The position numbers and the translations under genes were made by a program. The notes beneath the pieces were generated by a model. That model searched no databases. It had not been told where the DNA came from and saw only the letters and a program-made list of their open reading frames with translations. Below, one piece after another: positions 20,601 to 57,333 of a DNA stretch of 64,000 nucleotides (its first letter is position 1; each line of letters starts with the position of its first letter). This stretch comes from Octopus vulgaris. Lineage: Eukaryota. The DNA is taken from positions 12,462,001 through 12,526,000 of the forward strand of contig OX597824.1 of assembly GCA_951406725.2 (NCBI GenBank), read 5' to 3'.

Positions 20601-23600
20601 CAAAATTTTCGCTGCGTTAGTTTTGAATTATGACATTGGGCTATGTGTGTGTCAAGTTTCATCAGAATCGGTTGAAAGCCGTGGTCAGGGTGAGGGTACA
20701 AGCAAACAGACACACAGAAACACGCACAGACAAACTGCCGTTTATATATAGAGATATATATATATATAAAACAAAGTGGAGTTGTAAGGTACCGCACGAG
20801 TGTATATACATGTATATATATATACATACATACATACATATATATATATATATATATATATATATACACACGCACACACACACACACATATATATATGTA
20901 TATATATATGTGTGTGTGTGTGTGTGTGTGTGTATATATATATATATGTATGTATGTATGTGTATATATATATATATACATATACATACAGACACGCACA
21001 CACACACACACACACACACACATATATATATATATATATATATGTTTATATATATATATATATATATATATATATACCAATATTTCCTTTCTGATATACC
21101 TATACGATTCACGTTTTAATTTGGCCCGTTTAAATAATCTGTGTCCTTCATTTGATTTCTGCAGAGCAGCATCATATATATGTATTGATATTTCAATATA
21201 GTTGCATGTATATCTGTCCTATATAAGCTGATGTTAATATACAGCTCTATGTAAAAGCGTTGGTATATATTCCCAATCACAGAATTTGGCGTTTATTTAT
21301 TAGCAACAGCTAAACTCTTCGAAAGTCATGATTCTGCATCATGAAAGCCTATCAACGGCTCACATAGCCATTTCTTTTTCTGTACAATCGAGGAATTCTA
21401 TGTGTAACGAAGAATTCAAAACAATCTCTATATGTTTAATATCTCGATATTGTTTCTAATATTTTCAAATATTCTTCTCAGTTTTAAATATTTCAAAACA
21501 AAAGATATTTTGAAACGCTTATTTTTACCTTCATTGTTTCAGGTATCGCTTTTAGTTCTGGAAAACAATGGAAAGACCAGAGAAAGTTTACCATGTCAGC
21601 ACTTCGGGATCTAGGAGTAGGCAAAAAAGTTCTAGAAGAAAAGATATCTTTAGAAATCCAGAGATTAGGCGAAACTTTTCAATCTCAAAATGGTAAACCG
21701 TTCTCCTTGAATAAACAGTTGTCACTCTTCACTTCGAGTATCATATACAATATCATATTTGGTAAAAGGTGAGTAGCAGTAATATATGGGTGTGTATGTT
21801 TGTGTTTGTGACCTGAGATACTCGTCCTGCCTTGGTTTTCTTTTCCATTTTTCTTTAATATATACCTGCAGGCTTGAAAGCCTACTACGGATCACTAACT
21901 CCAGCCTTAGCTGCTGTGAACACCGAACCTAACGGGTGACCGGTTATAGCACTTACGCACCGTACCGTTGGTTTAGATCATCAGTGAACTAAACCTCTCA
22001 TATTCTTGCCCACTCCCCTCCAACCCCACACCTAACTACCAACAGACTGTGTCTTCCACTATTCATGACCTCATTTCCTCCTCCTGTCTTCCTCCCACCG
22101 CCTCCAACTTCATTGTCCGTACCCCACGCACACCCACTATTTACTTCATTTCCAAAATTCACAAGCCTAACAATTCTGCACGCTCTATCGTCTCCACCAG
22201 AAATGTTCTCCGAATATTTCGACCGTGTCTATGCCCCCCCCCCCCCCTAATAGCTTCCCTTTCCTCACACATTCACGATACCAATCATGCTCTCCGTCTG
22301 TTTAACTCTTTCTGCTTCCCTTCTGACCCCTCTCAAATTCTGTTCACATTTGACATTAGGACTCGGTATACGGTGATCACATACAACGAAGGAATTCTTG
22401 CGCTTAAACCCTTCCTTGACCATCGGCCTAACCCTCAACCTGACACTTCCACAAGTCTGGTTGAACTTCTCCACTCCCTCAGCTGGGGAGTTTTACCAAA
22501 AGTTTCGGGAGTGGCCATGGGAACGAGAATGAACCTCAACTGTGCGAACCTGTTCATTGGCTACGATGAGGCCCAAATATTCTCACAATTCACTGGTCTC
22601 ACTCTCGAGCTATACGGTCGTTATATAGACGACTGTATCGGCGTGACCTCACTCTCCCGCGAACAACTGGACTCCTTCCTTTTTTCTGTCCAATCCTTCC
22701 AGCCTAACCTCGAATTCTCCTCTACTATCTCTAAATCTTCCATCGAATTTCTCGACATTTCTGTCAGCAACCTCCATCAAGCATACTGACTCACACTCCT
22801 ACCTTAACTTCTCCTCCTCCCACCCAACCCACACCAAGCTCTCCATTCCCTAATCCCAATTCCTCTGTCTACGCAGGTTATGCAGTGATGGCCATGACTT
22901 TGTGACTCAATCTCAACTCATGGCCCGCCCATTCGTCACCGATTCCTTTACATGCACCTCTAGTAATGTTATTTACAGCATCACTTGATCCCTCTGTCCT
23001 GCTCTGTACATTGGTCAAAAGGGATACCGCTTGACCGAGCGGTTCGCGGAGCACCTCCGAGACATCAGATTTGGCAATGATACCCCGCTCTCGCGCCACT
23101 TCCGCTCTACCGGTCATTCGCTACATCTGTCCATGTTCTGACTGTGTCAGCACAGGTGTCACCAAGTCTCCCACCTTCAACGTGAACAGGCATTAATCTT
23201 AAATATATATATAAATTCTATAATTAAGACGTGTGAATTCGTTATTCGTCCGTATAAATTTGGAAATGCTGTTTGTTGGATATTAGTTATTCGATATCGC
23301 TTGGTCGAATGCGTATTTAATTATTAAGTACTTTCAAACTTATACGTGAAATACTACACTGAAGTGGGAAATAAGTGAGTAAATATGAATTTTACATCTC
23401 TTTAATCCCGAAACGCGTATGTAATTAATCAAAGTCGTGTGGATTCGTTATATTTTCTCTTTACCTATGTAAAATAAGGTACCTTATTATAGAAGAATAG
23501 TATTTAACTGCTATTTCTAATTCGGTATGTGGTGAAGCATTTTTCTGAACACTAATTATAATTATAGAATTTTTGTATAAGGTTACCGATAAAGGTTATT

Positions 23601-57200: not shown

Positions 57201-57333
57201 GCTTCGCCTAATCTCTGGGTTTCTAAAGATATCTTTTCTTCCAGAACTTTTTTGCCTACTCCTAGATCCCGAAGTGCTGACATGGTAAACTTTCTCTGGT
57301 CTTTCCATTGTTTTCCAGAACTAAAAGCGATAC
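45058..57333 (-). CDS. Cytochrome P450 clan 2, copy B (inverted paralog); exons 2-8 present, exon 1 not in window
   Basis: Exons 57333-57108, 54227-54101, 52211-52055, 49700-49564, 46838-46742, 46215-46009 and 45236-45058 have the same lengths as in copy A. Splice sites are intact, with no stops or frameshifts. Heme motif FGSGPRMCPG. Confidence 0.9.
46009..46215 (-). CDS. CYP copy B exon 7
   Basis: ASVTIPH...GYDIPKDAL...[16 protein letters not shown]...FLPFGSG. Confidence 0.92.
46742..46838 (-). CDS. CYP copy B exon 6
   Basis: [32 protein letters not shown]. Confidence 0.9.
47110..47780 (+). mobile_element. Degenerate Penelope-like RT fragment (mirror of 30560-31200)
   Basis: [39 protein letters not shown]. 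Confidence 0.75.
49564..49700 (-). CDS. CYP copy B exon 5
   Basis: [45 protein letters not shown]. Confidence 0.92.
50384..50682 (+). mobile_element. Penelope-type end in CYP-B intron 4: 108-bp spacerless palindrome, hammerhead, tail, (TA)n
   Basis: Palindrome 50384-50491 centred on tacccatgggta; tail ttcggcatatttggcatt also present reversed at ~20041-20120. Confidence 0.7.
50478..50530 (+). ncRNA. Type I hammerhead ribozyme motif
   Basis: TATCA-CTGACGA-AGGG..GGTTC-TCAC-GAACT..CCCT-GAAATCGGTC-CGATA; one mismatch in stem I next to the core. Confidence 0.65.
52055..52211 (-). CDS. CYP copy B exon 4
   Basis: Mirror of 25942-26098; YVRNK instead of YVKDK. Confidence 0.9.
52686..52855 (+). mobile_element. 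R4/Dong-like LINE fragment (mirror of 25246-25415)
   Basis: [10 protein letters not shown]...[18 protein letters not shown]. Confidence 0.75.
52856..53830 (-). mobile_element. Degenerate mariner (mirror of 24225-25245)
   Basis: Same motifs, including FHEDNARSH and [13 protein letters not shown]. Confidence 0.88.
54101..54227 (-). CDS. CYP copy B exon 3
   Basis: [42 protein letters not shown]. Confidence 0.88.
54860..56080 (-). mobile_element. Degenerate Penelope-like RT + GIY-YIG (mirror of 22000-23200)
   Basis: [35 protein letters not shown]...RF.EHL. Confidence 0.85.
56665..57048 (-). mobile_element. SINE family 1, diverged; arm-B specific
   Basis: Reverse complement of the family consensus; absent at the mirrored point ~21810. 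Confidence 0.75.
57108..57333 (-). CDS. CYP copy B exon 2
   Basis: Reverse complement of 21543-21768; 3 aa changes, 1 silent change. Confidence 0.9.

Follow-up and report, generated by a model that had tools for sequence, protein, structure and literature searches.

Introduction

Positive selection on duplicated detoxifying cytochrome P450s (P450s) is textbook knowledge for vertebrates and insects. In vertebrates, xenobiotic CYP genes form unstable clusters that evolve by birth and death, and the available text of Thomas 2007 (PMC1866355) describes positive selection near their substrate-binding regions. The primate paralogs CYP2D6, CYP2D7 and CYP2D8 have a ratio of nonsynonymous to synonymous substitution (dN/dS, or omega) of 0.79 in the substrate-recognition sites (SRSs), 0.32 outside them and 0.39 overall, according to the accessible part of PMC4419802. 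In the woodrat, CYP2B has a global dN/dS of 0.54. The portion of that report at hand names no positively selected codon and gives 13 key CYP2B pocket residues (PMC3425548).

Octopus vulgaris carries a pair of closely related P450 genes, here called A and B, on contig OX597824.1 of assembly GCA_951406725.2. They lie within positions 12,462,001 to 12,526,000, a stretch of 64,000 nucleotides (nt) that is referred to as the window and is numbered from its first letter. The pair is a fresh, unusually fast case of the known birth-death evolution of P450s, seen in a small sample. What is somewhat unusual is the level. The two paralogs are intact, yet across the whole gene their missense divergence is as high as that of their introns or higher, compared with an omega of 0.39-0.54 in the two CYP2 studies.

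As in the vertebrate unstable clusters, there are local duplicates, lineage-specific copies and signs of selection near substrate-binding regions, the last being an excess at variable and SRS positions of borderline significance. Unlike those clusters, as far as the available text of PMC1866355 describes them, this one is found in a cephalopod, the genes are inverted and tail-to-tail, and an omega of ~1.4 applies to the whole gene and not to a few selected sites. With primate CYP2D, the octopus genes share close paralogy, probable gene conversion and a dN that is higher in SRSs than elsewhere. They differ from the values in the accessible part of PMC4419802 in that, measured against introns, the ratio is ~2.3 in SRSs, 1.2 outside and 1.4 overall, on far fewer changes. 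With woodrat CYP2B, they share variation at the 13 key pocket residues, and their omega of ~1.4 contrasts with the global 0.54 given in the portion of PMC3425548 at hand. Literature searches, with subscription papers outside their coverage, found no study of the evolution of this octopus P450 cluster.

Two P450 genes in an inverted duplication

The window is AT-rich (36% GC) animal DNA that is dense in microsatellites. Masked self-comparison of the window reveals one large inverted duplication that carries A and B as a tail-to-tail gene pair (Table 1). The homology of the two arms is collinear and is interrupted by microsatellites and by insertions private to one copy. Gene A is complete, with eight exons and 498 amino acids (aa), and begins with an N-terminal membrane anchor and a PPGP hinge. 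Its exon 1 is 100% identical to the N-terminus of P0004, the public model for this gene in O. vulgaris, and lies outside the interval given in a first-pass annotation of this DNA, whose exons 2-8 (1130 nt) hold as stated. Gene B has exons 2-8 in its arm.

A and B encode a P450, and among solved structures its nearest relatives are CYP2s. The Pfam domain PF00067 (p450) is carried by P0004 and is found in P0005, a third O. vulgaris paralog (C), at 390.6 bits against a cut-off of 22.8. Both A and B contain a heme motif FxxGxRxCxG, ExxR, an I-helix AGxxT and PERF/W, which we take to be the P450 motifs of those names. An NCBIfam scan gave only bacterial P450 matches, all below threshold. The predicted structure of paralog C has a predicted local distance difference test (pLDDT) score of 90.8, and its best matches are CYP2B, CYP2A, CYP2D and CYP2C at a template-modeling (TM) score of ~0.85. 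The top fold match is woodrat CYP2B35 (TM 0.85), which has only ~34% identity to the octopus protein. The nearest matches are CYP2 first, then CYP17, CYP1 and CYP21. Members of one CYP family share at least 40% identity. The octopus proteins are 31-37% identical to vertebrate CYP2-named proteins and 29-34% identical to solved CYP2 chains, and at less than 40% they fall outside the CYP2 family in strict nomenclature. The names "cytochrome P450 2B4-like" and "2J6-like" on P0004, P0005, P0018 and P0006 are automatic best-hit labels. The genes appear to belong to a local cluster with lineage-specific duplicates, with two copies in the window and, among the 120 matches listed, seven O. vulgaris models on a contig of equal length.

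Divergence of the coding sequences and introns

Over exons 2-8, A and B differ at 38 nucleotides, 32 nonsynonymous and 6 synonymous, which change 29 amino acids. The first-pass annotation had given these same counts, and every A/B motif pair that it quoted was reproduced on recount. It had also reported no stops, frameshifts or splice loss; none is present, indels are absent as well, and A and B alike have AG/GT at each of the 13 internal splice dinucleotides. Lesion-free exons 2-8, changes that are non-random with respect to conservation and the existence of spliced contigs all set the pair apart from pseudogenes. By the Nei-Gojobori method, the nonsynonymous and synonymous proportions are 0.0358 (pN) and 0.0259 (pS), for an omega of 1.39. 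CpG hypermutation was considered as a cause and rejected, with a CpG context in only 5 of the 38 differences.

Introns were judged to be a better neutral yardstick than six silent changes and were counted in blocks that were unmasked, free of gaps, 30 nt or longer and at least 80% identical. Introns 2-7 differ at 202 of 7216 sites (2.8%). Under neutrality, their substitution spectrum predicts 22.9 missense, 7.2 silent and 1.6 nonsense changes in the exons, where 32, 6 and 0 are observed. Omega against introns is 1.39 (95% confidence interval (CI) 0.95-1.97), and values of mean omega up to 0.7 are rejected (P=0.0003 for 0.7 itself). The earlier claim that dN/dS is near or above 1 holds, and is on firmer ground with introns as the yardstick. 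The accompanying claim that exons have diverged more than introns fails (p=0.29). It drew on a 240-nt spot check of intron 7 that fell in a quiet stretch (bin 32500: 3/250); in full, intron 7 differs at 22 of 766 sites (2.9%).

Distribution of the changes over the protein

The conservation profile comprises 73 homologs, an alignment of 75 rows minus P0005 and P0018. The sites that changed have lower conservation than missense changes drawn under neutrality (0.416 vs 0.518, p=0.009). For 27 of the 29, the A and the B residue are both present among the homologs, which is expected for 60% under neutrality and was reached in 0 of 5000 draws. Changes on both branches pass this filter, 17 of 18 that are unique to A (p=0.0016) and 10 of 10 on the B side (p=0.007). 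No A/B change occurs at positions that are at least 90% conserved, with 2.7 expected. On this evidence, purifying selection still filters the changes, if weakly. When octopods are removed (66 rows), variable sites have 21 changes against 9.3 expected (p=0.0007). A twofold excess over the intron rate at tolerant sites is thus probable, though not secure. The first-pass annotation had proposed diversifying selection on substrate specificity; the roughly twofold excess at variable positions suggests it, but the p-values are borderline and do not establish it.

Residues were placed by aligning P0005 with CYP2B4 and by means of helix predictions, namely F (204-219), G (240-264), I (293-324) and K (355-367). 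The Gotoh SRS ranges in CYP2B numbering, as applied here, cover 61 positions. The CYP2A6 SRS ranges come from the available part of PMC8469730 and were applied with an offset. Eight of the 29 changes fall in the Gotoh ranges (211, 214, 296, 298, 313, 370, 375 and 481; expected 4.7, p=0.078). Three other SRS definitions capture 7-8 of the 29 (p=0.096, 0.045 and 0.012), with 3.4-4.7 expected over all four definitions. The earlier statement that many changes lie in SRSs is borne out in part. Seven or eight do so, at p-values of 0.01 to 0.10, but 21 of 29 are outside the Gotoh ranges. No definition tried includes the G-helix changes at 256 and 257 or the heme-loop changes at 439 and 445, which had been counted among the SRS changes; all four sit at variable positions. 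In the heme motif FxxGxRxCxG, 439 and 445 occupy "x" places, where the commonest residue accounts for 26% and 49% among the 73 homologs.

In SRSs, the missense rate is 2.35 times that of introns (9 vs 3.8, p=0.017); outside them it is 1.2 times. Across A, B, C and P0018, an Octopus sinensis protein, 15 of 47 variable sites are in SRSs (expected 7.6, p=0.003), and variation extends to 5 of the 13 key CYP2B residues (p=0.015). Paralog C has 8 of its 18 unique changes in SRSs (p=0.004), a stronger signal than that of A vs B.

Relatives and the branch of each change

Over 375 residues, C differs from A at 34 and from B at 28. The closest relative of B is P0018, which differs from it at 13 residues and from A at 31. 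In a tree of 15 proteins, B pairs with P0018 (94/94), A joins next (88/88) and C after that; the clade of these four (100/99) lies beside P0006 from Octopus bimaculoides. The A/B split likely predates the split of O. vulgaris and O. sinensis because B groups with P0018 ahead of A. The available text of 10.1101/2023.05.16.540928 places that species split at 2.5 million years and gives O. vulgaris a heterozygosity of 1.22%. A haplotype or assembly artefact was rejected, since the intron divergence of 2.8% is over twice this heterozygosity, there are large copy-specific insertions, and B is nearer to P0018 (13 aa) than to A (29 aa).

Of the 29 differences, 18 are unique to A, 10 are sites where A equals C and the change is on the B side, and one (445) is conflicting. 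Faster change of A than of B was considered and rejected (18 vs 10, p=0.18). The first-pass annotation had held that its reading would fail if all changes lay on one copy and were functionally random. Instead, both branches have changed and conserved sites are avoided, which makes pure pseudogene drift unlikely.

Some sites disagree with the tree. At 221, 252 and 320, A equals B and C equals P0018, and at 445, A equals P0018 and B equals C. These sites point to gene conversion or convergence, and some residues are likely exchanged between A, B and C through conversion. A single long A/B conversion tract in the coding sequence was rejected, the longest identical run being 116 nt (p=0.49). In O. 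sinensis, P0030 is a B-like copy that begins at exon 2 and is broken in exon 5 and after exon 6; it may be a pseudogene or reflect assembly errors. In O. bimaculoides, P0006 and P0007 are identical from about residue 200 to the end and different in the N-terminal part, with 26 differences within 124-498. This pattern would fit either a gene model that is chimeric or conversion within this family.

Transcript evidence

Contigs from 4 of 24 listed runs were compared over exons 2-3 of A. The runs are presumed to be RNA, although none of those listed is recorded as such; the four were selected as holders of B exons 5-8, and the contigs may come from other species. Letters are given from the variant rows shown (166 more are not shown). 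In all four runs, a contig joins exon 2 to exon 3 over the 2011-nt GT..AG intron. Record 9 of run X14 begins inside exon 2 and has the B letter at 6 of 6 A/B-diagnostic places shown and two letters of neither copy. Record 16 of run X17 has 435 letters ahead of exon 2, which by length only is about exon 1, and has A letters at 23817 and 23828 while differing from A at 10 places. This contig and X18-23 have mixed A, B and C letters. The gene group is spliced and mixed versions exist, which does not imply full-length expression of A and B each. The presumed-RNA contigs also contain A>G missense letters at 21627, 21646 and 23847 (K151R, I157M and S221G). These could be alleles, paralogs or cephalopod A-to-I editing, and G221 occurs also in models P0005 and P0018.

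Explanations for the divergence

The explanation that we favor, with about even confidence, is relaxed constraint after duplication plus some positive selection, in working enzymes. A and B are recent inverted duplicates of one CYP2-like P450 gene, and each would encode an active, membrane-bound monooxygenase with dietary or environmental compounds as substrates. Their proteins change at least as fast as introns, likely from constraint loosened after duplication, and some tolerant positions, a few of them around the substrate pocket, have likely been driven by positive selection. Q298H (CYP2B residue 290), A375I (residue 367), T370I, M296L, G313S and L481M may alter the shape of the pocket and with it substrate selectivity or regioselectivity. 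Conversion among the three paralogs would likely add to this by reshuffling some residues. If this is true, a small testable set of pocket substitutions separates two 92%-identical octopus enzymes, and the pair offers a first handle on cephalopod xenobiotic metabolism. A broader form of this idea is tentative and rather unlikely. It would have a P450 group of at least three copies, confined to the lineage of O. vulgaris and O. sinensis, still undergoing an adaptive radiation that involves the whole protein. Selection would have driven tolerant positions at ~2 times the neutral rate, and conversion would shuffle pocket residues (125, 298, 313, 375, 481, 485 and 487) among copies, so that detoxifying enzymes of differing substrate range segregate as a library.

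Several results weigh against positive selection in two working enzymes. The classical test against neutrality is not significant (Fisher p=0.55, binomial p=0.16). A whole-gene omega above 1 is borderline (p=0.042, one-sided), and the excess is gone at a neutral rate of 3.3% (p=0.19). The variable-site excess, when no codon is counted twice, has p-values of 0.006-0.056 across nine thresholds, and the variability classes and thresholds were picked after the data were seen. Conserved sites are spared weakly (6 observed vs 8.6 expected, p=0.25, octopods removed), and the 13 differences between B and P0018 do not avoid them (p=0.41). The share of SRSs among variable sites is not significant (p=0.10-0.13), and A differs from B at only 2 of the 13 key CYP2B positions (298 = 290, 375 = 367; p=0.27). 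The A letter at 21657 occurs in none of the four runs, which is weak evidence given that the runs were chosen as B holders. In addition, exon 1 of B is unseen in the window, P0018 is intact but partial, beginning at exon 2, and P0004 lacks exons 4 and 5.

Relaxed constraint alone is a possible if somewhat unlikely account, in which redundant working enzymes evolve under weak purifying selection and the missense excess is sampling noise or comes from an underestimated neutral rate. An omega of 1 lies within the CI, and conserved sites show hardly any sparing. P0019 and P0021, another pair of the cluster, differ at 16 of 375 residues, which makes rapid change of the protein a general feature of the family. 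Divergence reaches 4.2% in the 3' flank and 4.8% in intron 6, and at such neutral rates the variable-site excess fades to p=0.04-0.11. However, introns are not significantly heterogeneous (p=0.11), and a neutral rate of 4.8% makes only six silent changes unlikely (p=0.037). Relaxation also caps omega at 1, yet variable sites change at ~2 times the pooled intron rate at every threshold. Conversion or mosaicism, to which we give little credence, would mean that exons and introns have different histories, so that the intron rate is the wrong yardstick and the pairwise ratio misleads. The tree conflicts at 221, 252, 320 and 445 and the mixed contigs X17-16 and X18-23 fit such an account. Silent exonic changes nevertheless agree in number with the intron-based expectation (6 vs 7.2), and the exons are hence no older; no identical coding tract is unusually long, and conversion that spared only missense sites would itself imply selection.

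It is also very unlikely that B is an exon-1-less fragment or young pseudogene, or that A is mis-spliced, with part of the missense load due to drift. One neutral copy predicts a mean omega of ~0.55-0.6, which is rejected (p<0.0001), and both the B-side and the A-unique changes are filtered to residues seen in homologs. B-type spliced RNA exists, if the runs are RNA as presumed. What speaks for a fragment is that the window has no second exon 1 and that homology breaks off next to a retroelement relic, at 18189/60861. In O. sinensis, P0018 as well as P0030 begins at exon 2, and P0030 is broken; the gap in P0004 points the same way. Two neutral copies would both be free of lesions with P ~0.017, which favors working genes, but this rises to 0.13 if one copy is neutral. 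On the other hand, an insertion in intron 1 would move exon 1 past the edge of the window, and P0018 is on a 36-kb contig.

Locus map and repeats

A second exon 1, for B, was not found within the 64-kb window by tblastn with seven exon-1 peptides or by blastn, which match that of A only. The B-side homology stops beside an (AAT)n tail and a decayed reverse transcriptase (RT)-like element that reaches the window edge. We take this element to be a non-LTR (long terminal repeat) retrotransposon from its motifs; a Pfam scan of five of its pieces gave no match. Exon 1 of B may have been pushed beyond 64000 or lost.

Table 1. Positions of the duplication arms, P450 exons and adjoining element in the window
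Feature	Positions	Strand	Remarks
Arm A of inverted duplication	18189..36303	+	masked self-comparison; collinear with arm B
Arm B of inverted duplication	42079..60861	-	masked self-comparison
Gene A exon 1	17255..17621	+	start codon, membrane anchor, PPGP; 122 aa
Gene A exon 2	21543..21768	+	AG/GT ends; joined to exon 3 in contigs of 4/4 runs compared
Gene A exon 3	23780..23906	+	helix F
Gene A exon 4	25942..26098	+	helices G-H; missing from public model P0004
Gene A exon 5	27299..27435	+	helix I; missing from public model P0004
Gene A exon 6	31544..31640	+	helix K, ExxR
Gene A exon 7	32165..32371	+	PERW, beginning of heme motif
Gene A exon 8	33144..33322	+	heme Cys, stop
Gene B exon 2	57108..57333	-	4 differences vs A
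Gene B exon 3	54101..54227	-	7 differences vs A
Gene B exon 4	52055..52211	-	2 differences vs A
Gene B exon 5	49564..49700	-	5 differences vs A
Gene B exon 6	46742..46838	-	4 differences vs A
Gene B exon 7	46009..46215	-	10 differences vs A
Gene B exon 8	45058..45236	-	6 differences vs A
Decayed non-LTR retrotransposon-like sequence, (AAT)n tail	60940..64000	-	RT-like fragments; where intron 1 of B would continue

The 400-aa model P0004 skips exons 4 and 5 of A in frame (25942-27435), which removes the I helix. Both exons are intact and have canonical splice sites, and the skip is most likely an annotation error, so that a probably faulty public gene model is flagged here.

Introns 2 and 3 of A contain decayed relics (21977-23190 (+) and 24500-25260 (+)) with counterparts in arm B. 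Being common to both copies, they are older than the duplication; from their motifs, we take them to be Penelope-like (RT plus GIY-YIG-like) and mariner-like. Outside the pair, a 339-codon open frame at 9742-10761 (+) with an Asn-rich stretch and a GIY-YIG-like end is probably a Penelope-type relic. A Pfam scan of nine repeat-derived open reading frame pieces, including the intron relics and this frame, gave no match. Intron 5 of A has a 74-bp near-perfect inverted repeat (98.6%) at 28116-28363 that is unaligned to B and looks like a small non-autonomous DNA transposon.

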